Counted from the stretch's first letter, positions 7,697 to 34,110 are shown. The stretch: 61,957 nt of DNA from an uncultured Desulfobacterales bacterium (GCA_964407825.1 CAYOXD010000003.1:8308-70264), one strand, 5' to 3'. The notes: generated by a model not told the origin, from the letters alone. Made by a program: numbers and translations.

Positions 7697-9073
7697 GTGA
7701 AAAGAATCGGTCGATACATCATTCGAGGGCTTCTGGGACGCGGGGGCATGAGCCGGGTCTATCGGGTCAGGCTGCCGGTGATCGGCGGTTCGAAGGCGCT
7801 GAAGCTGTTAGCGCCACACCCATCCCTGGTGGACCTGTTGGGAATGGATAAGATCCGGAGCCTTTTCAAAGCCGAGGCGGTCACCATGGCCGGCCTCAGA
7901 CATCCGAACGTGGTGGCCGTGCATGATTTCGATGAGGTGGACGGCCGCATATTCTATGTTATGGAGTATTTCAGCAACAATCTCGGCGAGTTGATCGGTG
8001 AAACCTATAGGACCGAAGCGCCTTCCAGGGTGCTGCCCATCGAAAAGACGCTCCATTACGCCCGTCAGATCCTCCAGGGCCTGGGACGGCTCCACCATGA
8101 CGGAATCGTCCACCGGGACATCAAGCCCTTCAATTTACTGATCACCGATCAGGACCGGCTTAAAATTTGTGATTTCGGTCTGTCCAAGCTCAGACAGGAA
8201 GAGACCCAGGCTCCCGGCAACCTCAAAGTGGGCTCTCCCTTTTACGCGGCCCCCGAGCAGGAGGCGGCTCCCGAACGGGTGGGCATCCAGGCGGACATTT
8301 TCTCAGTGGGCGTTGTCATTCACCGTATGCTCACGGGAAGACTCCCCTATGGAGACGGCACCGATCCCCAGGGACCGGCCAGCCGGTTGAACCCGAACCT
8401 CGATGGGGCCTGGGATGCCTTTCTCGAAAAATCCCTTGCCCCGGACCTGAACCTGCGGTTCGAAAGCTGCGAGGCAATGTCCCTGGCGCTTGAAAACCTG
8501 GCCGGGCTCTGGAAGAAAAAAAAGGCCGGCATATGCGCCCTCTTGACGGCCCCTGTTTCGAGCGACCCGAACCGCAGGGTTGGCAATGCCCCCCCTGCGC
8601 CCCCCAGGAGCCGGAGGCTGAAGGTTCCACCCGGCCGCGCCAGGGACGCCTTTGGCCTCGATGCCTTGATGCGTCCCCTGCGTTCTCACGGGCACCAGAT
8701 GGAGCGAAGGAGCCCGTGCCTAGTCCGCGACCCCCAGACGGGGTTGCTGTGGCAGCAGGGGGGCTCGCCCTACCCCCTGACTTGGGGGGAGGCCCATGAT
8801 TACATCGAAAAGCTCAACCACCAGCGGTTCCAGGACCGGACCGACTGGCGTCTGCCGACGATTCCGGAGCTCTTGTCCATCATGACCCGTCCTCCTCAGG
8901 GGGCGGACCTCTGTCTTGCGCCGATCTTTGATCCCGCACAACGTTGGTTATGGAGCAACGACAGAAGCGCCTATACCGCCGCCTGGTATGTCAGTATGGA
9001 GATGGGCTTCGTGGCCAGGAACGATTTTTCGGCCGCCTACTTTGCGAAAGGCGTTTGCAGCTCGGCAGGATGA
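7697..9073 (+). CDS. Ser/Thr (Hanks-type) protein kinase with C-terminal DUF1566/Lcl-type domain
   Basis: GRGGMS, ALK, HRDIKPFN, DFG and YAAPE. C-terminal V.D..TGLLWQ...WRLPTIPEL...W.WS...AW.V. GTG start. Confidence 0.88.
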   Translation: MKRIGRYIIRGLLGRGGMSRVYRVRLPVIGGSKALKLLAPHPSLVDLLGMDKIRSLFKAEAVTMAGLRHPNVVAVHDFDEVDGRIFYVMEYFSNNLGELIGETYRTEAPSRVLPIEKTLHYARQILQGLGRLHHDGIVHRDIKPFNLLITDQDRLKICDFGLSKLRQEETQAPGNLKVGSPFYAAPEQEAAPERVGIQADIFSVGVVIHRMLTGRLPYGDGTDPQGPASRLNPNLDGAWDAFLEKSLAPDLNLRFESCEAMSLALENLAGLWKKKKAGICALLTAPVSSDPNRRVGNAPPAPPRSRRLKVPPGRARDAFGLDALMRPLRSHGHQMERRSPCLVRDPQTGLLWQQGGSPYPLTWGEAHDYIEKLNHQRFQDRTDWRLPTIPELLSIMTRPPQGADLCLAPIFDPAQRWLWSNDRSAYTAAWYVSMEMGFVARNDFSAAYFAKGVCSSAG

Positions 9074-9184
9074 TCCGTCGCACCCCTGCTTCGAGATACG
9101 ATTCCACGTTGCGTTGAACTGCAAAAGGATTTATTTTTATTGAATTGGACCACCTGATCAGAAATGCACCAGGAGGAACTCCAC

Positions 9185-10120
9185 ATGAATGAGAGAGCCA
9201 TGATACTGGCGTCCTTTGCCGCCGACGCCCTCGCGCTGGGAGGCCACTGGGTTTACAACGCCGCGGTTATTGAGAAAAAATACGGTATCCTAGACCGATA
9301 TGAACCGCCCCTGGGACGCTCCTACCATCCAACCAAGCAAAGGGGCGACTTCACCCACTACGGAGACCAGATGCTTCTGCTGCTGGAGGACCTTGCGGTG
9401 ACCCGCGGATTTGCCCTGGATCACTTCGCAGGCTCTTGGCGGTCCTTTTTCTCGTCCTATGATGGATACTTCGATCATGCCACCAAGGACACACTGGAAA
9501 ATTTCAAACACGGCGCAACGCCCCGTGAGAGCGGCTCACACTCCACGGACCTGGGCGGTGCGGCCCGAATTTGCCCGATCCTGTATTTTTACCGAGGCAG
9601 CCAGGGAGGATGGCTGCCAGCCGTTCGCGCCCAAACCGCCATGACCCACAACCATGAGGATGTAGTAAAGAGTGCCATCTTCTTTTCCGATGTCACCCGC
9701 CGGGTGCTGGCCGGACAATCACCGTCCGCCGCGGTGCTGGAGGTGGTCCAGGGCTGTCAGGGACAGGAGAACATCATCTCATGGGTCAACCGCGGCAGGG
9801 AAAGCCTTGATGCGGATACCCGGCAGGCTATCGCCGGCTTCGGACAGCAGTGTGCCACCGCCGCCGCCTTTCCCGGCGTGATTCATCTGGTGCTGAAATA
9901 TGAGAATGATTTGAAAACGGCACTGGTCGAAAATGTGATGGCCGGTGGGGATTCCGCTGCTAGGGGGATGATGACTGGCATGATCCTCGGCGCTCACACG
10001 GGCATGGAGGGCATCCCCGGCCATTGGCTCTCACAACTGCGAGCATGGGAGCGCATCACCGGACTCTTGGATCAAATCGATGCGATGAACGACCGCGGCG
10101 CCCCCAAATTGCTGTCATAG
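9185..10120 (+). CDS. ADP-ribosylglycohydrolase family protein
   Basis: ADALALG, T..TH, N..AGGDS and G...GA..G...IP..W pattern. GGAGG RBS before ATG 9185. Confidence 0.8.
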   Translation: MNERAMILASFAADALALGGHWVYNAAVIEKKYGILDRYEPPLGRSYHPTKQRGDFTHYGDQMLLLLEDLAVTRGFALDHFAGSWRSFFSSYDGYFDHATKDTLENFKHGATPRESGSHSTDLGGAARICPILYFYRGSQGGWLPAVRAQTAMTHNHEDVVKSAIFFSDVTRRVLAGQSPSAAVLEVVQGCQGQENIISWVNRGRESLDADTRQAIAGFGQQCATAAAFPGVIHLVLKYENDLKTALVENVMAGGDSAARGMMTGMILGAHTGMEGIPGHWLSQLRAWERITGLLDQIDAMNDRGAPKLLS

Positions 10121-10417: not shown

Positions 10418-11500
10418 ATGAAACAGCCGCACATTCTTATCGTTAAAAGCCAGGCCGCCGTGGCCTCGGAGCTGGCGGCCCGAGTGAAAGGGCTGGGTTA
10501 CGAGGTCATCGGGATTGCAGCCGATGGCAAGGAGGCGCTGTCGCTTACCGATGGCCTGGCGCCGGATCTTGTGCTGATGGACATCGATCTGAACGATCCC
10601 CCGGGGGGCGCACCTCCGGGAAAAGCGATGCAGGGCCTGGACAATGTGCCGGTGGTGTATCTGTCAGACCACCCCCCTGTCGCCACTCTCGATCGGCTGA
10701 ACATCACCGGGCCGTTCGGGTATATCTGCAACCCCTTTGACGAGCGGGATGTGCAGATGCAGATAGCCTTCGCCCTGTTTAAGCACCGTTCAGAGGAGAA
10801 ACTGCGGCAAGCCGATGAGGCACTGGAGCAATTCACTTATGCTGCTTCCCATGATCTCCAGGCACCGCTGCGCTCGGTTATCGGATTTCTCCAGCTGCTC
10901 CAGACCCGGTGTGACGACCGACTCGACGAGGAGGGACGGCATTTTATCCAACGATGCGTCAGCGCTGGATATCGAATGCAGGCGATGATTGAAGGCCTGT
11001 TGACCCTGTCCAGGGTGAATACCCATGCCTCAAGGTTTGCCCTGACGGATCTCAACCGGATCCTACAAAATGTTCTCAAAGCCCTTCCGCCCATCCTCCT
11101 GGAGAGAAATCCGGACATGATCTGCGCCGTCCTGCCGAATCTGTCCGTTGATGGCGGCCAGATCCACAGCCTTTTTCAGCATCTGATCACCAATGCCCTG
11201 ACCTATAATAATAGCCGGGTCCCCAGGGTCGAGATCGGCTGCCAGGAGCAGGCCGATGCCTTTGGATTTTACGTGAAGGACAATGGCATCGGCATTCGTT
11301 CCCAATTTCACCAGAGGATTTTCACGGTTTTCCAAAGGCTTCACACGGACCGTGAATATTCGGGGATTGGGCTGGGGCTTGCGCTTTGCAAGAGGATCGT
11401 CGAACGGCACGGCGGGAGCCTTTGGGTCGAATCGCCGCCTGAGAAAGGCTCAACCTTTCATTTCTCGCTTCCCAAGCAGACCCGAACCCAAGATATTTGA
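10418..11500 (+). CDS. Receiver-domain + HisKA/HATPase histidine kinase
   Basis: N-terminal receiver (LVLMDIDL), H-box SHDLQAPL, N-box, DNGIGI and GIGLGLA. Confidence 0.88.
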   Translation: MKQPHILIVKSQAAVASELAARVKGLGYEVIGIAADGKEALSLTDGLAPDLVLMDIDLNDPPGGAPPGKAMQGLDNVPVVYLSDHPPVATLDRLNITGPFGYICNPFDERDVQMQIAFALFKHRSEEKLRQADEALEQFTYAASHDLQAPLRSVIGFLQLLQTRCDDRLDEEGRHFIQRCVSAGYRMQAMIEGLLTLSRVNTHASRFALTDLNRILQNVLKALPPILLERNPDMICAVLPNLSVDGGQIHSLFQHLITNALTYNNSRVPRVEIGCQEQADAFGFYVKDNGIGIRSQFHQRIFTVFQRLHTDREYSGIGLGLALCKRIVERHGGSLWVESPPEKGSTFHFSLPKQTRTQDI

Positions 11501-11516: not shown

Positions 11517-13613
11517 TCACCCATCCAGGACCTGGCGAATCATCCGGGCCATCTCGATCATGGGGACGGGTTTTGTCAGAAATCCCTGCACCTGTAACTC
11601 CAGCGAATTGCCCGGGGACGGACAGTCCATGCCGCCGGAGCAGAGGATGATCGGAATGTCGGGTTGAATATGGCGGAGTTTTTGGGTCAAGGCCCAGCCA
11701 TTTAGCTTGGGCATATTCATGTCCGATATAACCAGGTCAAATTGGCTCGGGGACTCTGCAAATCGTTCGATGGCCTGGAGGCAATCGCTCAGGGCCACCA
11801 CCTGATACCCCAGCCTGCCCAGCATTTGCGTTGCGAGTTCCACCTGTATGGATTCGTCATCGATGAACAAGATACGCTCGTTTCCCCCGGGCAAGCTGGA
11901 GGGGGCGTCGGGACTGCGGACGTGCGATGGGCGGGCGCCGGGCAGCAGTACCCGAAAGATACTGCCCGCGCCGACCTGGCTGCTGGCAAAAATGGAACCA
12001 TGGCAGTTTTTCACGATCCCGTGCACGACGGAAAGCCCCATGCCGGTACCCTTTCCCTCCTCCTTCGTGGTGAAGAAGGGGTCGAAGACCCTTTTCAGAA
12101 CCTCATCGCTCATGCCCTGGCCGGTGTCTCTCACCGTCAGCTCGACATGCGTACCGGTCTGTAATTCCGGATATGATTTCATGTCGGCAGGTTGAAGATT
12201 CAGATCGCGCAACCGCACGGCCAGTACGCCCCCACCTGCCTGCATGGCCTGGGCCGCATTGGTACACAGATTCATAATGACCTGATGCAGTTGGGTGGGA
12301 TCGGCCAGGACAAATGCCTCGCTTTTAATTTCGCTCTCGATTTCAATGGCCGCCGGCAGGCAGGCACGCAGCAATTTTAAGGCTTCCTTGACGATTATCT
12401 TGGGTTTGACAGGCTTTTGCTCGAGTTTGGATTGGCGGCTGAAGGCCAAAATCTGCCGAATGAGATCCGTGGCTCGCTGGGTGGCATGCAGGACCTGGGT
12501 CAGATTGTGTTGTAAGGCGCTGTTTCCCGAAACCTCATTCAGGCTCAACTCGGTATACCCCAGAATGGCCGATAGAATATTGTTGAAATCGTGGGCGATG
12601 CCGCCTGCCAGGGTGCCCATGGCCTCCATCTTCTGAGATTGCTGCAGTTGGCGCAGGATTTCCACCCGTTCCTTTTCGAGTTGAGTGCGAAGGGCCAGCT
12701 CGTCGGTGAGCCGTGCATTGGCCTGCTGCAACTGCCTGGTTCGCTGGCGCACCCGCTCCTCCAAGGCGCTGTGGGATGCAATCAGTGCCCTTTGCAGCTC
12801 CTGCAACCCATCCTTTTGGATGGCGATTTCGCGGCCTGCCTGAATAATTCGCTGCTTCTCTTCAAAGTGGCTCAGATCCCGGATAATCAGAAGGATTTTA
12901 TCATGGCTCGTGGTCACCGCAATGGCCTCGAAATAGTGCTCCTTTCCACTGCTTTCGGTATCGATCCACAATCCCGATTTCGTGCAGCCCACTTGATCGC
13001 GGTTCCAGAAGGCAAGGGCGTCATCCAGAAAATTCTCCAGAAAAGAAAAGGAGCTGCCGATGGTCCCGCAGGAGATGTGTCCGTCATTCCGATTCGGGCA
13101 ATAGCGCACAAGCCATTCCGGCTCCTGACCCAGCAGCTCGAATGAGCCGTCGGATTCGAGTCGCATGGCGGCAATGTCCATGGCATGATACAGTTCATTT
13201 GCCCGATTGGCGATCCGGGCACTCGCCTTTGCCTCACGGGAGAGCGTCATAGCCAGGGCATTGGCTTTTTGCTGCCATTGGGTGATGGTCCGATCCTTCT
13301 CGGTCACATCCACTAAAAACAGTCCATGGCCGGACTCGGTTTGAAACAGGTGGACATCCAGGGACCTGTCCGGGGCCATTTTCACCATGGGCAGGTAGAG
13401 CGACGGCACTTGGGTGGGAAAGAGCCCCTCGGTGAAGAGCAGTTGGTCGGTGATGGGCCGATCCTTTTCAAGGGCGGGCAGTCCCAGGCCTTCAAGATCT
13501 CCCCCCCAGGAGCGTACCGCTCCCTGCGGGTCGACCAGAATGTATGCGAAGACAAACCGGTGTGGAAGCCATTCCTGAAGAAATGCCCATACGGGCTTCG
13601 GTAATTGGACCAT
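11517..13613 (-). CDS. Hybrid sensor histidine kinase / response regulator
   Basis: H-box AHDFNNIL, N-box NLCTNA, DTGQG, PFFTTK, GTGMGL. C-terminal receiver FIDDE...ISDMNMP...TKP. Confidence 0.92.
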   Translation of the reverse strand: MVQLPKPVWAFLQEWLPHRFVFAYILVDPQGAVRSWGGDLEGLGLPALEKDRPITDQLLFTEGLFPTQVPSLYLPMVKMAPDRSLDVHLFQTESGHGLFLVDVTEKDRTITQWQQKANALAMTLSREAKASARIANRANELYHAMDIAAMRLESDGSFELLGQEPEWLVRYCPNRNDGHISCGTIGSSFSFLENFLDDALAFWNRDQVGCTKSGLWIDTESSGKEHYFEAIAVTTSHDKILLIIRDLSHFEEKQRIIQAGREIAIQKDGLQELQRALIASHSALEERVRQRTRQLQQANARLTDELALRTQLEKERVEILRQLQQSQKMEAMGTLAGGIAHDFNNILSAILGYTELSLNEVSGNSALQHNLTQVLHATQRATDLIRQILAFSRQSKLEQKPVKPKIIVKEALKLLRACLPAAIEIESEIKSEAFVLADPTQLHQVIMNLCTNAAQAMQAGGGVLAVRLRDLNLQPADMKSYPELQTGTHVELTVRDTGQGMSDEVLKRVFDPFFTTKEEGKGTGMGLSVVHGIVKNCHGSIFASSQVGAGSIFRVLLPGARPSHVRSPDAPSSLPGGNERILFIDDESIQVELATQMLGRLGYQVVALSDCLQAIERFAESPSQFDLVISDMNMPKLNGWALTQKLRHIQPDIPIILCSGGMDCPSPGNSLELQVQGFLTKPVPMIEMARMIRQVLDG

Positions 13614-14110
13614 TATGCCTCCAAAATCAGGGCGGCCAAGGTTTGGAAGGCCGTCTCGACGCAGTGGCCGGTTTTGGCGCTGGTCTCAATCGCCTGGATG
13701 CGATTCCTGGCAAGCCGTGCCAGATCTTCATCGGTTATCTCCCAATGTTCTCTCAGATCGCACTTGTTCAAAGTCATGATGCACGGCTGCGCTCCAACGG
13801 CGTCCTGCGCCCGCGCCTGGAGACCCAAGGCGACGTCGAGGGTGTTGCGCCGGGTGCCGTCCACAACATAGATGAACCCGGCCGAACCCCGCAGGTAGGA
13901 CACGGGCACGGACTGGAAATCATCCTCGCCGTGCAAATCCCATATGATCAGATCGATCTCTTTTCCGGACACGGTCATCTCCTTCTTGTCGATTTTCACC
14001 CCCACCGTGGTGTGATACTTATCCGAAAAAATCGAGTAAACGTGCCGTTTAACCAAACTCGTCTTACCTGCGGCGAATGCGCCGAGCATACAGATCTTCT
14101 TCTTGATCAT
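13613..14110 (-). CDS. Ras-superfamily (Rab-like, Rup-type) small GTPase
   Basis: G1 GAFAAGKT, G2 YHTTVG, G3 WDLHG, G4 NKCD, G5 TSAKTG. 165 aa. ATG 14110 overlaps the upstream stop (ATGA). Confidence 0.9.
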   Translation of the reverse strand: MIKKKICMLGAFAAGKTSLVKRHVYSIFSDKYHTTVGVKIDKKEMTVSGKEIDLIIWDLHGEDDFQSVPVSYLRGSAGFIYVVDGTRRNTLDVALGLQARAQDAVGAQPCIMTLNKCDLREHWEITDEDLARLARNRIQAIETSAKTGHCVETAFQTLAALILEA

Positions 14111-15873
14111 GGGCATGCCTCTTTGCCGTTGATGAGCGTTTGGAAGGTGACGCTGCGTTCGGTGTCGAAATGTTCCTGAGCATCGCCCGTCTGGAAAGGC
14201 ATATCGGAACCTCTGCCCACGGGGGACAACAGGGTGGGGTCGAGCCCCTTCGCGAAAAGAAACCGCAACACGCGCGAGGATCTATCCTGGCTCAGATGCA
14301 GATTCAACAGGGGGGGGCCAGTGGGATCGCTCCGGCCGATCACCTTGATATGAATTTGAATTCCCGATTGTTGGGCCATGGACTGCATCCTGGCAATCAG
14401 GGAGCTGGCAGTCATCAGGGTTGGCTGTTGATCCGGGGCCAAAACGCTCCTGCCCGAAGCGAAGGTAATGCTTAGTCTGGACAGTCGACTGGCCAGGGCA
14501 TAAAGTTCAACCATCTGGATATCCTTCAACTGGCGCGTATCGCAGGCAGACACCCCCGCAATGGCGGGTGCAAGCCGGTTCAGTTTTACAACCCATTCAT
14601 GGGAAGCGCTCCCTGAAGCGGCCAGTACCCCCTGGCGAAGGTTCAACTGAACCCCGGGCGGTGGCTTCAAAATCTGCTCCGCCCTGCGCAGCACCAAGGG
14701 TCCCTCAAGAGCCTGGTAATACCGCCACCGGCTATGTACCTGTTGGGGATCGATACCGGCTGCGGCCATCAGTTCCCGGGGGTCCGCGGCGAGCGGGTCG
14801 CGCAACCCCTCGATATAATATTGCCCCCATCCCTGATGAGCCGTTGTGACGACAATACCGCTTTGCGCCCGCAACTTAGCGAGATAATTCTGCCAATGAC
14901 GTCGTTGTTGGAGAAAATGCCATGTCCCGAAAAGAACCAAGGCGACGGCGGCCGCACCGGCAAGCCAGAGCAACGGCGAGGCCCGCTGTTTGACCTCTCT
15001 CATCTCGACGATCAGCTCGTTTTCCAACTGAGGCCGAATCATGTCGAAGGGAGCCACCTCACCATCGAAATCAGCCCATTTCGAGCTGAAGGTTTCATGA
15101 ATTTCCTTCAGCAGGCCTTTGAATCGCTCCCGCATCGTCAGCGGCGGTGTGCCGCGGAGCACGACCGCCAGAAATGCCTCCGCCCCCTGCTCAATCCAAA
15201 CACTGTGATCGCCGCCCATGCGCAAGGTATCCAAGGTGTCACCGTGATGCGCGTCGAAGCTGTCCTTGATGAAATCCTGAATGGCGGTGAGCATGCCCGA
15301 AACCAGGTCCGGATCGCGTACCTGTATGTCCAGCGAGGCCACATGCTGGAGCACCACACCGGTATGCCGATGCACCAAGAATATCTGTTCCACCTGATAG
15401 ACCAGACTGTGAAGCAACACCACTTCAGCAAAGGGCCGATGCGTACGAAAGGCTTCCAGGCGCCATTTGATCCCACGAAGGGAGACCGTCTGGTTGAGCA
15501 GTTGGTTGAGGGATTGAATCATCCCCAGGAGAGTGGCGATGACGGATTTGCGAATGGCCGGCCCCAGGGCAGGAAAAATCACATCGGCGATGAACGCGGG
15601 GTTCCTTCGGACCGATCTTTTGAGCACTGTATCGATGGTAGGCCCCAGGGCTTGCGCCATGCGATCCCCGTTCGCGTGGCTCAAGGTGATGGCATCGGGC
15701 AAAGCCTGGCTGAGTTCCTCGGCGCGGCGTACCGGGTCGTTGAGGCGGGCCAGGATTTCATCCAGCCGGCGACGCTCGGGCCCCGAAAGCAATTCGCGCA
15801 GCTGGCGCCATTGGGAGGCAATTAACTCATCTGCCTGCGCGTCCGAACCGTCTCTTGAAGCGGATTCACCCAT
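14107..15873 (-). CDS. Single-pass membrane protein: cytoplasmic helical + longin/roadblock-like region, TM, periplasmic BON-like + OmpA/MotB domain
   Basis: TM at about aa 300-320. C-terminal ITF..G...GRSDPTG...NLHLSQDR OmpA motif. Confidence 0.8.
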   Translation of the reverse strand: MGESASRDGSDAQADELIASQWRQLRELLSGPERRRLDEILARLNDPVRRAEELSQALPDAITLSHANGDRMAQALGPTIDTVLKRSVRRNPAFIADVIFPALGPAIRKSVIATLLGMIQSLNQLLNQTVSLRGIKWRLEAFRTHRPFAEVVLLHSLVYQVEQIFLVHRHTGVVLQHVASLDIQVRDPDLVSGMLTAIQDFIKDSFDAHHGDTLDTLRMGGDHSVWIEQGAEAFLAVVLRGTPPLTMRERFKGLLKEIHETFSSKWADFDGEVAPFDMIRPQLENELIVEMREVKQRASPLLWLAGAAAVALVLFGTWHFLQQRRHWQNYLAKLRAQSGIVVTTAHQGWGQYYIEGLRDPLAADPRELMAAAGIDPQQVHSRWRYYQALEGPLVLRRAEQILKPPPGVQLNLRQGVLAASGSASHEWVVKLNRLAPAIAGVSACDTRQLKDIQMVELYALASRLSRLSITFASGRSVLAPDQQPTLMTASSLIARMQSMAQQSGIQIHIKVIGRSDPTGPPLLNLHLSQDRSSRVLRFLFAKGLDPTLLSPVGRGSDMPFQTGDAQEHFDTERSVTFQTLINGKEACP

Positions 15874-15884
15874 AGCATTCCACT

Positions 15885-16499
15885 TCAGGCATCGGCCTCA
15901 CCGACAGCGGGAATCTCCTGGTGGTCTGAAAGCCTCATGGCGATATCCACCAGATATTCGGCCAGGGATGCGCGATCCAGTTTGCTTCCATCGAGCCGTT
16001 CAGCCACTTGGGCCAGGGACCGGTCCGCCTGCTCCTGCTTGCTCTGGATGGTACCGATCAATTCCTTGGATTGCTGAAGGATCTGCTGCCGCAGTTCGGT
16101 AGAACGTTCCGAGAGCTTGTCTTCGACCTGCTGGATGGCCGAGGTTAACTCGACCGAGGAGCTCCTCATGTCATCGTTCAGGCGCTTTCCGGCCTCCGCA
16201 CACTTATCCGCTTCCTTTTTAATACGCCCCTTGAGGGTTTCCAGTTCTTCCTTGAAAAAACGTTCCAGAGCCTCCAGACGATTGGTCAATTCGTCCCGTA
16301 GCGCGGCGGTGTATCGATTCAGGTGCTCCTCCATTTGGGAAAAACGGCGTTCGAAATCCCGCACCTGATTGCCGAAAAGGATATCGCGGATCTTCTCCAT
16401 GCTTCCGACATCGCCTGTTTCGGTTGGGAATGAGGCATTTTTCGGTGGCTTGGATTTCAGCGGCACTTCTGGCTTGAGCGCCTCGTCCTTTTTGCTCAT
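15885..16499 (-). CDS. Coiled-coil hypothetical protein
   Basis: KIRDILFG.Q.R then a long E/K/L/Q heptad-rich helix. AGGAG RBS before ATG 16499. Confidence 0.75.
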   Translation of the reverse strand: MSKKDEALKPEVPLKSKPPKNASFPTETGDVGSMEKIRDILFGNQVRDFERRFSQMEEHLNRYTAALRDELTNRLEALERFFKEELETLKGRIKKEADKCAEAGKRLNDDMRSSSVELTSAIQQVEDKLSERSTELRQQILQQSKELIGTIQSKQEQADRSLAQVAERLDGSKLDRASLAEYLVDIAMRLSDHQEIPAVGEADA

Positions 16500-16881
16500 G
16501 GTGGCTCCTCTCGTTGGAATACGCCCATCCATCCGGCATGACTTTGTTCGGCCCGGAAGATTCTGGTTTCAAAATATTATGTTGTAAGCCCTCCTGCCTG
16601 TTCCAATGCTAAGGGGAGCATGTTTCAGAGGGCATTGTAGGCATTCAGAATGTGGTGCCAAGGCATCGTGTCAACGGCGAAAACAAGGAACCTGTTGGAA
16701 TGTATATATGAAAGAATTATGCGGCAGCAACGGGGCCAATGTCAAGCGATTTGTAGCTTATCCGGTTCTTGGCGATGACGACGGGCCACTGGCTGATCTG
16801 CCTTCGGAAATCGGGTGTACCTAACCGCAAAATGGTTGTATAGACATAGAAACGCTGTTTGCTGACGGAAAGGAACAAGGA

Positions 16882-29675: not shown

Positions 29676-30564
29676 CGTCCCTGCCAGTGAGGGCTTTCAA
29701 TGCCTCGATATACCGGGCGCGGGTGTTTTCAATCACCTCTTGGGGCAGGGTTGGGCCGGGAGGGGTATGGTCCCAATCGAGGGACAGGAGATAATCACGA
29801 AGGTACTGTTTGTCATAGCTCTTCTGGGAACCGCCGGGCTGGTAGGTGGATTTCGGCCAGAAGCGTGAAGAGTCGGGGGTCAGGACCTCGTCAATGAGGA
29901 TCAGTTCATCGCCCGCCATGCCAAATTCAAATTTTGTGTCTGCGATGATGATCCCCTTGGTTTCGGCCAGCTCCGCCCCCCTTTGGTATATCGCCAGGCT
30001 CAGATCCCGGGCTTTTTCCGCCACCGGCTTACCGACGATACGGGCGGCTTCCTCGAAATCGATATTGAGGTCATGCTCCCCTAGCTCCGCCTTGGTGGAG
30101 GGGGTGAACAGAGGTTCAGGCAATTTTTCAGATTCCTTCAGGCCCTGGGGCAGCGGGATACCGCAGACTGTTCCCGACTCCCGGTAGGACTTCCACCCAG
30201 AGCCCGAGATATAGCCCCTGACGACACATTCGATGGCCAGGGGGACGGCTTTTTTCACCAGCATGCTCCTGGAGGCCAACCTGTCGGCATGGGCGCTGCA
30301 GGAGTCTGGATAATCGGCCACGTTCCCACTTATCACGTGATTGTCCACCAGGGATTTCATGATATCGAACCAGAAAAGCGAAATCTGGGTCAATATTTTG
30401 CCCTTGTCTGGGATGGGATCCGGCATGATGACATCGAAGGCCGATATCCGATCCGAAGCCACCATCAGGAGGCTGTCCCCCATGTCGTAAATGTCCCTGA
30501 CTTTTCCTCTTCTAAGGAGTTTCAATCCCGGAATATCCGTTTCCATCACCGCCTGTGTGCGCAT
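29665..30564 (-). CDS. purC: SAICAR synthase
   Basis: [31 protein letters not shown] and [12 protein letters not shown]. Confidence 0.97.
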
Positions 30565-30589
30565 TCGCCTTCCCCTTCTCCTCGTGCCC

Positions 30590-30940
30590 CTATGGAATTT
30601 CCATATCCGTATCGAAACGGGTCTTAAAAAACTGCCGCAAGGCATCAAGCACCGTCTCCGGCATCTCGAAAAAGGTCAGCCCTGTGCCGTAGCGGCCATT
30701 TTCGAACTGCCGCTGATGGCTCACTTTGGACTTGATGTCAATGGTTTCATTATCCAGCCCGATGGTCAGGACCACGATGTAACCGGGGTCAATGGGAAAA
30801 CTCGTTTCCAAAAGGATCCCCTTCTCAGAAATATTCAATGTGCGTCCCATCCCCTGGTGAATGGACCGCCCCTTCTCGTCCAGCAGGACATAGGACAAAT
30901 TCAGCGAATCGATACGATCGGCTTCCCTTTTTTCAGACAT
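30590..30940 (-). CDS. PilZ domain protein
   Basis: RxxxR (READR) and NxSxxG (NISEKG) c-di-GMP motifs. Confidence 0.85.
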
Positions 30941-30955
30941 CTCTCTACCGTCGCG

Positions 30956-32143
30956 CTAGGCGCGCCTCCTTCCTTCCTTCGCCTTCACAAAAGCATCCTC
31001 AATCAATTGCGTGGTAATTGAAATGCACGCAGATGTATGTTCGATAAGATTTCGCATGGTGGTAGACTGGCGATCATATTCGGTACTCAAAAGCTTTTCG
31101 TCCACCTCCCCCACTTCAATGTCCGGCGATGCGAAAACGCTTGCGCCGTGGGGCTCATGGCCGAATTCGAGGAAGGGGAAAACACCGAAAAAATCCCCCT
31201 TGGAAAGCTCGGCAAGACGAATTTGACCGTAATCCGTGTGGCGCACAATGGCAACCTGTCCATTTTTAATGGTAAACAGCCCCTCCTTCCCCTCAGCATC
31301 CGGAATGAAGGGCTCCAGTCCCTGGGATGGCTGCAGGTTCTGCAACTGTTTAGCTCTTACGCTCAGCAGTCCATCGGTCAGGTCCTTGAGGCGTTTATCG
31401 ACACTGATCAGGAGCCGTCTGAAAACCGGCGTCAGGGAGGCAAATTCACCGGCAAGCCGGGGCGCATCGATGACGCCCAGTTGGGTATTGTCTCCCCGGG
31501 CCACAGCGGCAGCGCTTCGCACATGATCCCCTGGCAGAAACGAGGCGAAACTGCCCACGAAGGATCCCTCGGCAAGCCTCAGAATCACTTCAGGCCCCCG
31601 CTCGGTGGTCTTTACGATATCCACCAGGCCGTCGAGCACCACCCAAATCCAGCTGCCGTGCTTGCCCTCCTGGGTCACCACCTCCCCATCCACAAAGGAT
31701 TCCTCATCCACTACATAGATGTAGTCGACCATCGGCCCCTTGAGCTGTGTCATTTTACGCGCCCTGGCGGCAGCGGCTCCGGTACTGCTTAGGGCTGGAG
31801 CCGGTCCTACCATTTTGACTTTTCCGTCATCAACCATTCGCAACCCGTCGAGAATGATTTCCATTCGGTTTTTGTGAATGGCCTTGCTCTTTCGAGCAGG
31901 CCCCACGCTGTAAGAAAAATCGCCGGTCTGCCAGCCGAAAAGTGAGTAGAGGGCGGTCAGCCCGCTGTCAGGCCCGTTTTCTGCATCCACGGGGTTACCA
32001 TTCAGAAAATAGATAAACGCGGGAATCGGCTCGTAGCTGCTCTGGAGTTGCAGTACGCCAGTGGATCCATTGTTTCCAATCAGCTGAATGAGCTCAGCTA
32101 GATTCAAGAACTCCAGTTTTCCCGAAAAAACGATATCATTCAT
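30956..32143 (-). CDS. DUF4388 + two cyclic-nucleotide-binding-like domains
   Basis: N-terminal SGKL.FLNL.ELIQL...TG.L...IYF.NG.PVDA. Two cNMP folds (F.DGEVV.QEG...V.DG.V; G.F.G). Confidence 0.78.
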   Translation of the reverse strand: MNDIVFSGKLEFLNLAELIQLIGNNGSTGVLQLQSSYEPIPAFIYFLNGNPVDAENGPDSGLTALYSLFGWQTGDFSYSVGPARKSKAIHKNRMEIILDGLRMVDDGKVKMVGPAPALSSTGAAAARARKMTQLKGPMVDYIYVVDEESFVDGEVVTQEGKHGSWIWVVLDGLVDIVKTTERGPEVILRLAEGSFVGSFASFLPGDHVRSAAAVARGDNTQLGVIDAPRLAGEFASLTPVFRRLLISVDKRLKDLTDGLLSVRAKQLQNLQPSQGLEPFIPDAEGKEGLFTIKNGQVAIVRHTDYGQIRLAELSKGDFFGVFPFLEFGHEPHGASVFASPDIEVGEVDEKLLSTEYDRQSTTMRNLIEHTSACISITTQLIEDAFVKAKEGRRRA

Positions 32144-32152
32144 GAAAACAAT

Positions 32153-32767
32153 TTATTGAGCCCATTTGAGCTCACGCTGGAGGTGCTTCAAGGTCAGTTT
32201 CAACCCCTCCAGCAGTGTTTTGCCCACCCCCTCACCGGTGACGGCGCTGGCCGCAAAGGAAGGCACCTTAAGCTGATGATTCAGTTCGCGCTCCATCTGG
32301 TCCAGGGGCATAAGGGGGATTCCCTGCTCACCGAGATCCCGCTTGTTGTACTGAAGCACCAGAGGCACCCTGAAAATACTCAGCCCGTATTCCTTCAGGT
32401 TCTGGTGTAAATCCTTTAGGGACTTCATGTTGCTCTCCCGCCTGACATTCAGGGAGTCAGCCACGAAAATGATCCCATCCACCCCCTTCAGCACCAGCTT
32501 ACGGGTCGATTTGTATTTGACCTGGCCCGGAACCGTGTACAGTTGCACCCGCACCTCGCATCCACGGATCTTGCCAAGGCCCATGGGCAGGAAATCGAAA
32601 AACAGGGTCCGGTCCCCCTCGGTATTGATGGACACCATCTCACCGGAGACCTGTTTCCTGTATGATTTGAAAATCTGCTCAAGGTTCGTGGTTTTCCCAC
32701 ATCTGCCAGGTCCGTAATAGACGATCTTGCATTCGATTTCTCTGTTCTTTAAATTAAATATAGCCAT
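32153..32767 (-). CDS. mglA: MglA-family small GTPase
   Basis: REI.CKIVYYGPG.CGKTTNL, DRTLFFDFLP, YTVPGQV, GVDG..FVADS and QYNKRD, matching Myxococcus MglA motifs. Confidence 0.92.
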   Translation of the reverse strand: MAIFNLKNREIECKIVYYGPGRCGKTTNLEQIFKSYRKQVSGEMVSINTEGDRTLFFDFLPMGLGKIRGCEVRVQLYTVPGQVKYKSTRKLVLKGVDGIIFVADSLNVRRESNMKSLKDLHQNLKEYGLSIFRVPLVLQYNKRDLGEQGIPLMPLDQMERELNHQLKVPSFAASAVTGEGVGKTLLEGLKLTLKHLQRELKWAQ

Positions 32768-32946
32768 AACGCCGGGCGCCCCTCATTTTCTTTCGGCTCA
32801 ATTCACTGCTTGCTCTTGCGAAAGGCGGCGAAGCACAGGTAAACCCCTTTTCGTACCTCGACGCGACGTCCTCCATCCCTTCGATATCAACCCTTGAGTC
32901 ATCGATCAATAGGTTCATGACTACTCGAACAAACTTGACGTGGGTC

Positions 32947-33867
32947 TCAACCATCCTCTATTTTGATGTCCAGGTGATAGTTGCCCTCCTTGGGGCCCGA
33001 ATCGATCAGCGCCTTGGCGGAAATCACCCCCTCTCCACGGAAGATGGCCACTGATGAATTGAACTGTAGATTCCTCAGGCGAAACCCCACATTCAGATTG
33101 TCCAAAAGCGTTTTTTCCTCGCTTTCGATGATGAGGCTGACCATGTTGCCTGCCTGGAACTTCACATCCAGTTCAACGGCCTTTCCCTTGAGAGGTCCCT
33201 TGTCCAGGGTAATCACAACGGAACCGACATCCAGATCCACGGGTTGCTTTTGGATAGCGGCCACCACGATGCGATGCTTGCCAGAATCGCATGCGGCCTC
33301 AGGCAGGTCCAACTGCACCCCATCCCTCTCCAGGCGCTCCTCCAGGAAATTCCGGACGCGATCAAGTTCACCCGGAGCAAAATTTGTATTGGTCAACCAC
33401 CCCTGATAGGTATCCACAGCCTTCTCGGGCGTCTCCAGAAGCAAATAACACTGGAGAATGTTCTTGGCGGCTGAAACCCTGACTGCATCCTTTTCCAGAA
33501 GACCGTTGAGTTCAAAAATGGCCCGCTCGATCTGTCCGAAATTGGCCAGGGTCACGGCGCCTTCCAATTCCTTGAGATCCGGATCGTCCTCCGCGGAATG
33601 GCTGAACAGGTTCTTGATCAAGGTTTGAACCTGAGGGGCTATCTCAGTGGTGGCTGGGGCAGCCTCTACCTTGTTGACAGTCACTTCCAGTTCGTCGATT
33701 TTCTGCGCCATGCTGGCCAGGAGATCCTCGCGGTTCTCCATGCCAGGCTGTTCCAGGACCATTCGCAAAGCCTCATCGTAGGCCGATCTGGCTTCTTCAT
33801 ATAGCCCCTGGGACTGATAAAGTTCCGCCACCTTAAGTTGTTGTTCAATCCCCTGTTTGATATCCAT
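32947..33867 (-). CDS. TPR-like N-terminus + beta-rich C-terminal domain, hypothetical
   Basis: AELYQSQGLYEEA TPR-like helices; C-terminal beta strands. Confidence 0.65.
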   Translation of the reverse strand: MDIKQGIEQQLKVAELYQSQGLYEEARSAYDEALRMVLEQPGMENREDLLASMAQKIDELEVTVNKVEAAPATTEIAPQVQTLIKNLFSHSAEDDPDLKELEGAVTLANFGQIERAIFELNGLLEKDAVRVSAAKNILQCYLLLETPEKAVDTYQGWLTNTNFAPGELDRVRNFLEERLERDGVQLDLPEAACDSGKHRIVVAAIQKQPVDLDVGSVVITLDKGPLKGKAVELDVKFQAGNMVSLIIESEEKTLLDNLNVGFRLRNLQFNSSVAIFRGEGVISAKALIDSGPKEGNYHLDIKIEDG

Positions 33868-34110
33868 TGGTGCCTATCCCCCGCAGCTGCCCTGGGCTGA
33901 GACCGCTTTGCGAACGTTATCCACTGCCGTTTTCGAGACGAAGCTTGTGAAGCGTATTATCGGACGTCGTAGTGTTATCCTACAGCTCCTTGGCTTCAGC
34001 CTTATTAAAAATATCCTCCCGACTATATTTCTGCCTGCAGGCCGAAAGTCAAGAAGATACGACGCTTATAGCACCGAATCGTGCTCCCGTAAAGGCTACT
34101 GCCCCATTTC

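Follow-up and report, generated by a model that had tools for sequence, protein, structure and literature searches.

What does a eukaryote-like small GTPase do when it is encoded between a membrane protein with an OmpA-like domain, on one side, and a histidine kinase (HK), on the other? This question is raised by a four-gene cluster at positions 11517-16499 of a 61,957-nucleotide stretch of DNA from an uncultured Desulfobacterales bacterium (GCA_964407825.1 CAYOXD010000003.1:8308-70264; the whole stretch is hereafter called the window, and positions are counted from its first letter). The cluster lies on the minus strand and encodes, in this order, a coiled-coil protein, a bitopic OmpA membrane protein, a single-domain Rab-like GTPase and a hybrid histidine kinase. 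It belongs to the Group 1 Rup (Rup1) system, and its four-gene neighbourhood is not new: a study in computational genomics reported it in 2014 (Wuichet and Sogaard-Andersen, 2014; Genome Biol Evol 7:57; PMC4316618). The scheme that we favour, with a probability of roughly 55%, is one in which the membrane protein provides the input, the GTPase acts as the relay, a unit of two PAS-like domains (PAS-A/PAS-B) at the N-terminus of the kinase serves as the effector-binding unit, and a kinase phosphorelay is the output.

The open reading frame (ORF) calls give four co-oriented genes that are translationally coupled, and the junctions were read directly: 11 nt lie between the TGA of gene 1 and the ATG of gene 2, the stop of gene 2 and the start of gene 3 share ATGA (14107-14110), and those of genes 3 and 4 share TAATG (13611-13615). 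A first-pass annotation, made from the sequence alone, had proposed exactly this tight arrangement, and had identified the products as a coiled-coil protein, an OmpA protein, a small GTPase and a hybrid kinase; both descriptions hold, the former by the ORF calls and the junctions and the latter by Pfam and by the genes called independently on a Logan contig of identical sequence (L081; SRR8557214), with the same products of 204, 588, 165 and 698 aa. Alternative starts exist for gene 1, whose product would have 215 aa if read from an in-frame ATG farther upstream (16532), and for the GTPase gene, where a start at 14116 opens a 167-aa frame.

The assignment to Rup1 is made by a point-by-point match to the published neighbourhood. 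The Rup family and its Group 1 were defined by Wuichet and Sogaard-Andersen (2014), who found that Group 1 rup genes neighbour those of a cytoplasmic coiled-coil protein, of a protein composed of a domain of unknown function, a transmembrane segment and an OmpA domain (DUF-TM-OmpA), and of a signalling output protein (GGDEF/EAL or HK), whose N-terminal region holds an invariant glutamine (PMC4316618). The G3 glutamine is missing from the GTPases of this group and may come in trans; from the predicted localisation of the components, the authors hypothesised a complex system of signal transduction comparable to the conservon (PMC4316618). These GTPases are also the bacterial proteins that group closest with eukaryotic Rab/Ras/Rho/Ran (PMC4316618; bioRxiv 10.1101/2024.02.28.582541), and later papers treat Rup1 solely as a phylogenetic group beside these families. 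The locus in the window has eukaryote-like G1-G5 motifs with the DxxG Asp, no G3 Gln, coiled-coil, OmpA-protein and output neighbours, and the invariant Gln. The remark in the first-pass annotation that Rup GTPases had been noted near two-component genes is accurate and understated, the exact neighbourhood, the missing G3 glutamine and a signalling model having all been published in 2014 (PMC4316618); the pathway that it proposed is a restatement of that hypothesis. Its further statement that no such pathway was known to have been characterised experimentally agrees with our literature search, which found no experimental study of Rup or Rup1 systems in a coverage that excludes most subscription journals.

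Conservation of the gene set was assessed by a genome scan with one genome per species and an alignment of GTPase relatives as the query, in which a close relative of the GTPase was found to be encoded in at least 579 species-level genomes. Locus comparisons were made on the best 80 of these at least 579 GTPase-carrying genomes, their ORFs being searched with the window proteins; these 80 loci belong to Desulfobacterales, to cyanobacteria (Nostocales and others) and to Acidobacteriota, Gemmatimonadota and Nitrospirales. An orthologue of the coiled-coil protein lies upstream in 74/80 loci, the N-terminal domain of the OmpA protein is found in 74/80 and the N-terminal region of the kinase in 78/80, and the gene order (coiled-coil, DUF-TM-OmpA, GTPase, PAS module or modules) is constant and on one strand. 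All modules are present in 70 of the 71 loci with enough flanking DNA, and since these related loci share the same order and strand, the clustering goes beyond chance; the first-pass annotation would have given up its proposal if the four genes did not co-occur in other genomes, and they do. The GTPase is 55-60% identical to, and syntenic with, GTPases of Nostocales, and orthologues of the OmpA protein are present in Mesorhizobium too; Nostocales and Mesorhizobium are both named among the Group 1 Rup taxa (PMC4316618). The OmpA protein has more than 2,784 relatives at E<=1e-10, and the public collection holds one that is 100% identical (P0122).

In cyanobacteria (L004:8499-8900, L005, L008 and most others), PAS-A is a separate gene of ~133 aa located directly after, and often abutting, the GTPase gene, and PAS-B heads a ~370-aa kinase without a receiver domain, so that the cassette comprises five genes there. 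The system is made of five conserved modules, two of which are fused in the kinase of the window.

The GTPase matches Pfam Ras at 1.1e-28 and all of its G motifs are present (G1 GAFAAGKT, the threonine of YHTTVG, G3 WDLHGED, G4 NKCD and G5 SAK). Among solved structures, the eukaryotic Rab1a, Rab6 and Rab4 come nearest to it in sequence (E about 2e-20), and pairing of its "WDLHGEDDF" with the Rab "WDTAGQERF" places a Glu at the position of the catalytic Gln61. The motifs, the alignments with Rab1a and Rab6 and the G3 Asp confirm what had been noted at first sight, i.e., five G motifs, a Rab-like rather than MglA-like character and a Glu in place of Gln61. Two family assignments were considered and rejected: the MglA family, because G3 (WDLHGE) keeps the Asp instead of reading TxxGQ and the cluster yields no Robl_LC7 match, and a canonical eukaryotic Rab, because there is no C-terminal Cys prenylation motif and the cis Gln is replaced by Glu. 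The C-terminus (...LAALILEA) has no Cys and no lipidation tail, and any membrane association must therefore go via protein partners.

In Ras, changes at the Gly12 or the Gln61 position abolish hydrolysis stimulated by GTPase-activating proteins (GAPs), and the eukaryotic Rnd and RhoH proteins, which carry such substitutions, are constitutively GTP-bound. In the 167-aa frame (ATG 14116), Phe14 occupies the Ras Gly12 position and Glu64 the Gln61 position; the Phe is found in 80/80 relatives and the Glu in 78/80. Both residues for canonical Ras-type hydrolysis being absent, hydrolysis should be either very slow or completed in trans. The first of these options leads to a switch without a GTPase cycle, in which the protein would be a hydrolysis-dead, permanently GTP-bound adaptor that signals by sequestration and release, or by relocation between a complex of the membrane and coiled-coil proteins and the PAS-kinase. 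The near-uniform Phe and Glu and the Rnd/RhoH precedent speak for such an adaptor, as does the lack of any recognisable GAP or guanine nucleotide exchange factor (GEF) family encoded in the cluster (Pfam, NCBIfam); we nonetheless judge this adaptor, the main variant of the favoured scheme, unlikely, given that the nucleotide-binding motifs are all strictly retained, NKCD and SAK among them, and that the partner module has an invariant Gln and Arg (see below), which would suit an active site completed in trans after the manner of TBC RabGAPs and RapGAP.

The partner module is the N-terminal part of the kinase. The kinase has no transmembrane segment by hydropathy and is thus soluble; its phosphoacceptors are His341 in the H-box (AHDFNN) and Asp631 in the receiver (VISDMNMP), and its NCBIfam matches are to generic VirA- and CckA-like transmitters, below cut-off. 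An exhaustive, profile-free search with its N-terminal region of a set of protein representatives at 50% identity found 991 representative protein clusters that carry this region, where a word-indexed search had given one protein only. The phmmer match coordinates divide the region in two: residues 1-~130 correspond to the separate ~133-aa cyanobacterial gene, and residues ~138-270 to the N-terminus of the output protein there. In the AlphaFold2 (AF2) model, built from an alignment of 44 search matches and reaching a predicted local distance difference test (pLDDT) score of 93, an N-cap helix is followed by a five-stranded PAS-like domain (22-102) with its long helix (104-144), and then by another PAS-like domain (147-245), whose long helix (248-289) leads to HisKA. 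The top Foldseek matches of this tandem are PpsR N-Q-PAS1, a Brucella LOV-PAS-HK and FixL (probability 1.00, E 2e-6 to 1e-4), with whole-model template modelling scores (TM-scores) of only 0.3-0.5. Neither module matches a Pfam PAS model or a PDB sequence, and the comparison of PAS-A with PAS-B by hhalign was not significant. On the predicted model, two divergent PAS-like domains (A and B) make up the N-terminus of the kinase, and a long helix comes after each of them.

Conserved residues cluster where each of these helices begins. Q258 and R261, after PAS-B, are invariant in all 75 aligned module-B sequences, whatever the output, and Q114, Q115 and N118 are conserved on the helix after PAS-A (Q114/Q115 at 98%). 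The "invariant glutamine" of the 2014 paper is most likely Q258. In relatives, module B is joined, either alone or together with A, to HisKA-HATPase, to an HK with a receiver domain (HK-REC), to HK-REC-Hpt-REC and to GGDEF-EAL outputs, as well as to SpoIIE/PP2C, to HD_5 (HD-GYP-type) and to a sigma54 AAA+ activator with HTH_8 (a Fis-type helix-turn-helix, HTH). As it is joined to so many unrelated outputs, the A/B unit is best understood as a GTPase-coupled input module, with the kinase downstream. Rosetta-stone fusions of the GTPase with A/B were also sought, and the proteins in which module B starts near residue 320 carry no Ras domain. A distant variant (L162:5338-8913) consists of the GTPase and an A/B-HK-REC-Hpt-REC protein, with no OmpA or coiled-coil gene within 5 kb upstream; this retention of the GTPase beside an A/B kinase was counted in favour of a flow from the GTPase to the kinase.

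These fusions bear directly on a flow in the reverse, conservon-like direction, in which the PAS-kinase would be a cytoplasmic sensor and the GTPase, membrane and coiled-coil proteins its output, which might, for example, control polarity or the envelope at the peptidoglycan. PAS domains classically act as cytoplasmic sensors, the cluster has no response regulator, the OmpA-like domain could be a wall-tethering effector, and the GTPase has been proposed as the output of the conservon (PMC4316618). On the other hand, the partners of PAS-B (kinase, cyclic di-GMP enzymes, PP2C, HD-type hydrolase, sigma54 activator) cannot all act on the GTPase, several of them are terminal outputs, e.g., the sigma54 activator with its DNA-binding HTH, and the parts that stay constant are the GTPase, OmpA and coiled-coil proteins, as expected of an input side. 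Reverse flow is, in our estimation, very improbable.

Of the four products, none but the OmpA protein, the proposed input, has a hydrophobic segment (top Kyte-Doolittle window 1.94, residues 298-316), and the AF2 model of this protein has an overall pLDDT of 73.5, with N-terminal helices of low confidence. The N-terminal cytoplasmic region matches no Pfam family. Within it, the core 148-261 is the most conserved part of the protein, with invariant H168, S192, A197, D200, F201, D204, F206 and G241, and is predicted to follow an alpha-beta-beta-alpha-beta-beta-beta-alpha order at a pLDDT of about 50-83. Roadblock/LC7 and longin domains are classic regulators of small GTPases, and the core is, tentatively, Roadblock/LC7- or longin-like by its modelled topology. 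Searches for a Roadblock link by Pfam (E<=10) and by PDB profiles were negative. Comparison by hhalign with a 2-sequence MglB profile gave a 108-column in-register alignment at a probability of 2%, and nothing meaningful came from an 82-sequence MglB alignment composed of the M. xanthus and T. thermophilus proteins (checked against PDB) and 80 metagenomic relatives.

Beyond the membrane, two periplasmic modules precede the OmpA-like domain and may tentatively be called BON-like: Foldseek alignments of the protein to Rv0899 (BON + OmpA-like; rank 15) span 268 columns, and five longer homologues have Pfam BON matches. Foldseek with the full-length model returned OmpA-domain matches only. The OmpA-like domain itself scores 31.2 bits in Pfam (cut-off 27.2, residues 470-567) and resembles Pal, OmpA-C and MotB-C at a Foldseek probability of 1.00 and target TM-scores of 0.79-0.85 (up to 0.85 for Pal); YfiB was also matched, through the structures 4zhy, 4zhw and 6iki. 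The peptidoglycan-binding signature is kept (D516, N524, S528 and R531); family members have D516 in at least 90% of cases and R531 without exception. From the model match, the fold and the retention of the Asp and Arg by which OmpA-like domains (PF00691) bind the peptide stem, the domain is predicted to bind peptidoglycan.

The coiled-coil protein has no hydrophobic segment and gives only sub-threshold Pfam matches to helical repeats (Apolipoprotein, 3e-6). Its most conserved part among 73 orthologues is an N-terminal motif, (D/E)K(I/V)RDILFGNQ.R..E.RF, and its C-terminal helix is conserved too. The N-terminal motif aligns with LRELL.GPE...L..L..RL near the N-terminus of the OmpA protein (hhalign P 5e-4, probability 31%; reversed control P 0.13). 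This weak similarity is suggestive of a pairing helix or of a site for a common partner.

An OmpA-like domain and a coiled coil also recall an envelope machine or phage-defence module of the Mot/Tol/Zorya type, in which a peptidoglycan-anchored, stator-like protein would be combined with a coiled-coil tail. In PADLOC, the tails of ZorA (E 2.5e-5) and ZorB (E 4e-5) are weakly matched by the coiled-coil protein and the OmpA domain, respectively, and a weak NCBIfam ZorA match and the MotB C-domains found by Foldseek point the same way. These are generic coiled-coil and OmpA-domain similarities that fall far under the family cut-offs; the GTPase and the kinase have no PADLOC matches, the transmembrane helix has no acidic residue, the cluster encodes no polytopic partner of the MotA/ExbB/TolQ kind, and the orthologues appear to be largely vertically inherited within phyla (PMC4316618). 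Such a machine is hardly credible here, and membership in Zorya proper, in which ZorB accompanies ZorA, a MotA-like pentameric channel with a tail, was rejected, the cluster having no MotA-like protein and weak generic matches only.

The favoured scheme, from membrane protein through GTPase to kinase, can be set out as follows. As no other component reaches the periplasm, the membrane protein would be the input; there it would be tied to peptidoglycan via its OmpA-like domain and extended by the two additional modules. Its cytoplasmic domain, possibly Roadblock-like, and the coiled-coil protein would bind the GTPase and set its nucleotide state or its availability. The loaded GTPase would then dock on PAS-A/PAS-B and alter His341 autophosphorylation and phosphotransfer to Asp631. 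GTP hydrolysis would be negligible or would be completed in trans by partner residues, the candidates being Gln258/Arg261 after PAS-B and Gln114/Gln115/Asn118 after PAS-A; a trans glutamine was first suggested by Wuichet and Sogaard-Andersen (PMC4316618). The direction from OmpA protein to GTPase to kinase had been part of the first-pass annotation, and the sole transmembrane segment in the OmpA protein, the soluble kinase and the presence of PAS-B on many outputs lend it indirect support. The annotated pathway is plausible and, through these comparisons, supported in part; its other elements, a switching of the GTPase by the OmpA protein and a scaffold role of the coiled-coil protein, are conjectural.

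Several points weigh against this scheme. Conserved polar residues on helices after PAS cores are often structural or signal-transmitting, and the invariant Gln and Arg, which lie on helices directly after such cores, can be explained without catalysis. The Roadblock reading is a lead drawn from the topology of a moderate-confidence AF2 model, and the sequence searches for it were negative. The OmpA-like domain may only anchor the protein and not sense; the earlier suggestion that the periplasmic part senses "wall state" is a reasonable guess by analogy with YfiB, and mere anchoring is equally possible. The cluster encodes no cognate response regulator or Hpt protein, and the searchable literature holds no tests of physical or functional interaction among the components. 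Finally, in a second distant variant (L164:2-6784), a DUF-OmpA gene lies directly 5' of one encoding an A/B-HK-REC-Hpt-REC-GGDEF-EAL protein, with no GTPase ORF between them.

What Rup1 does is a question of some weight for small-GTPase evolution. The PAS modules, the invariant Gln and Arg, the swappable outputs, the Phe at the Gly12 position and the possible Roadblock-like domain make Rup1 directly testable. A bolder proposal, to which we would give low odds, sees in the Rup1 cassette a trans-envelope GTPase switch whose logic is that of the eukaryotic cascades running from receptor and GEF platform through GTPase to effector: the membrane protein, tethered to peptidoglycan, would load the GTPase by means of a cryptic Roadblock/longin-like cytoplasmic domain (cf. 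Ragulator and Mon1-Ccz1), and the PAS module would sense whether GTP is bound and also turn the GTPase off with a Gln/Arg dual finger provided in trans. If this were true, PAS domains would be a new class of small-GTPase effector/GAP, and Rup1 would offer a living model of where the regulation of eukaryotic small GTPases came from.

Table 1. Features of the Rup1 cluster, with positions in the window (aa, residues of the respective product).
Feature	Position	Strand	Size or basis
Gene 1, coiled-coil / apolipoprotein-like helical protein, cytoplasmic	15885-16499	-	204 aa; ORF call
Gene 2, bitopic OmpA membrane protein	14107-15873	-	588 aa; ORF call and Pfam
Gene 2, conserved cytoplasmic core, aa 148-261	15091-15432	-	AF2 topology, conservation
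Gene 2, single transmembrane helix, about aa 299-323, SPLLWLAGAAAVALVLFGTWHFL	14905-14979	-	hydropathy; AF2 helix 300-336
Gene 2, two periplasmic beta-beta-alpha-beta-alpha modules, aa 340-465	14479-14856	-	AF2 pLDDT above 90
Gene 2, OmpA-like domain, predicted peptidoglycan-binding, aa 470-581	14131-14466	-	Pfam, Foldseek
Gene 3, single-domain Rab-like GTPase, Rup1 type	13613-14110	-	165 aa; ORF call and Pfam
Gene 4, hybrid histidine kinase	11517-13613	-	698 aa; ORF call and Pfam
Gene 4, module A, aa 1-144: N-cap helix, divergent PAS-like domain, long helix	13182-13613	-	AF2, Foldseek, phmmer
Gene 4, module B, aa 145-289: second divergent PAS-like domain, long helix	12747-13181	-	AF2, Foldseek, phmmer
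Gene 4, transmitter: coiled-coil linker, HisKA aa 332-394, HATPase_c aa 438-558, receiver aa 581-692	11517-12746	-	Pfam
Motif common to coiled-coil and OmpA proteins, aa 22-45 each (coiled-coil protein counted from the 16499 start), EKIRDILFGNQVRDFERRFSQME vs WRQLRELLSGPERRRLDEILARLN	16364-16435, 15739-15810	-	hhalign
Two sigma-70-like promoter matches 5' of gene 1	16634-16745	-	consensus match only

The two promoter matches agree with the consensus at 11/12 (16745-16716) and 10/12 (16661-16634) positions and sit in a divergent intergenic region of ~380 nt, which contains 7 such sites vs 2.7 +/- 1.6 in shuffles. At the other end of the cluster, a REC-HisKA-HATPase_c protein of 360 aa (10418-11500, plus strand) is encoded convergently with the hybrid kinase, the stops being 16 nt apart; it is a possible phosphorelay partner of that kinase, and its gene is not kept beside the cluster in relatives. 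Farther along the same flank lie two plus-strand genes between 7697 and 10120: the product of one (7697-9073) is a Ser/Thr protein kinase that has an Lcl_C domain, and that of the other (9164-10120) an ADP-ribosylglycohydrolase. Conservation of the flanking genes with the cluster (REC-HK, ADP-ribosylglycohydrolase, Ser/Thr kinase and a Na/Ca exchanger) was looked for in relatives and not found. A strong orthologue of the Ser/Thr kinase (453 bits) occurs near the cluster in one other locus (L059:12629-14005), which could be a coincidence.

Among known systems, the closest is Rup1 as described in 2014, which the locus matches in all four components and with which it shares the lack of experimental characterisation in the literature found. 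The locus differs from that description in its Desulfobacterales-like origin and in the fusion of PAS-A and PAS-B to a hybrid HK-REC, PAS-A being separate in cyanobacteria. The 2014 paper did not split the N-terminal region into two PAS-like domains, gave GGDEF/EAL or HK as the only outputs and left the fold of the DUF unassigned; what is added here is the tandem of PAS-like modules, the wider range of outputs, the invariant Gln258/Arg261, the Phe at the Gly12 position and, tentatively, the Roadblock topology.

The MglA/MglB polarity system of Myxococcus xanthus is likewise a bacterial GTPase switch with dedicated partners and links to two-component-type proteins. MglA differs in having TxxGQ and an intrinsic Arg, as does the second small GTPase of the window, and no MglB homologue is detectable in the Rup1 cluster by Pfam or hhalign. 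This second GTPase gene (32153-32767, minus strand, 204 aa) is of the MglA type, with G1 GPGRCGKT and a G3 TVPGQ without Asp. Directly downstream lies a gene for a DUF4388 (PATAN) protein with two cyclic-nucleotide (cNMP)-binding domains (30956-32143), upstream one for a TPR protein (32947-33867), and no MglB gene was seen beside it; some MglA genes are PATAN-linked (PMC4316618). The G+C content is 0.52-0.55 at 30001-34000, the MglA-like/PATAN region, vs about 0.57-0.60 in the rest of the window.

The actinobacterial conservon (the kinase CvnA, the Roadblock/MglB-like CvnB, CvnC and the GTPase CvnD) is also a four-gene cassette with a small GTPase, a histidine kinase and a membrane component, and a Roadblock-type partner would be common to both systems if the topology proposed for the DUF is right. 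CvnD, however, belongs to the MglA family, whereas the GTPase of the window is Rab-like and keeps DxxG; the conservon kinase is a membrane protein, and the Roadblock protein there is a separate, Pfam-recognisable gene. Moreover, the conservon has no OmpA or coiled-coil component, and no CvnC-like gene is found among the conserved components of this cluster.

On the envelope side, the Pseudomonas YfiBNR (TpbB) system offers an OmpA-like, peptidoglycan-binding envelope sensor that controls a cytoplasmic signalling output; YfiB differs in being an outer-membrane lipoprotein that acts via a periplasmic repressor on a membrane cyclase, with no GTPase involved.

On the GTPase side, eukaryotic Rabs with their TBC GAPs (dual Arg/Gln finger) or RapGAP (Asn thumb) provide the closest structures by sequence and the precedent for catalytic residues supplied in trans. 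The GTPase of the window departs from them in having no prenylation tail, no cis Gln and a Phe at the Gly12 position, and its partner is a PAS domain plus helix instead of a TBC or RapGAP fold, its trans-finger role being putative. On the side of the similarities, the partner module here carries an invariant Gln and an invariant Arg, three residues apart.

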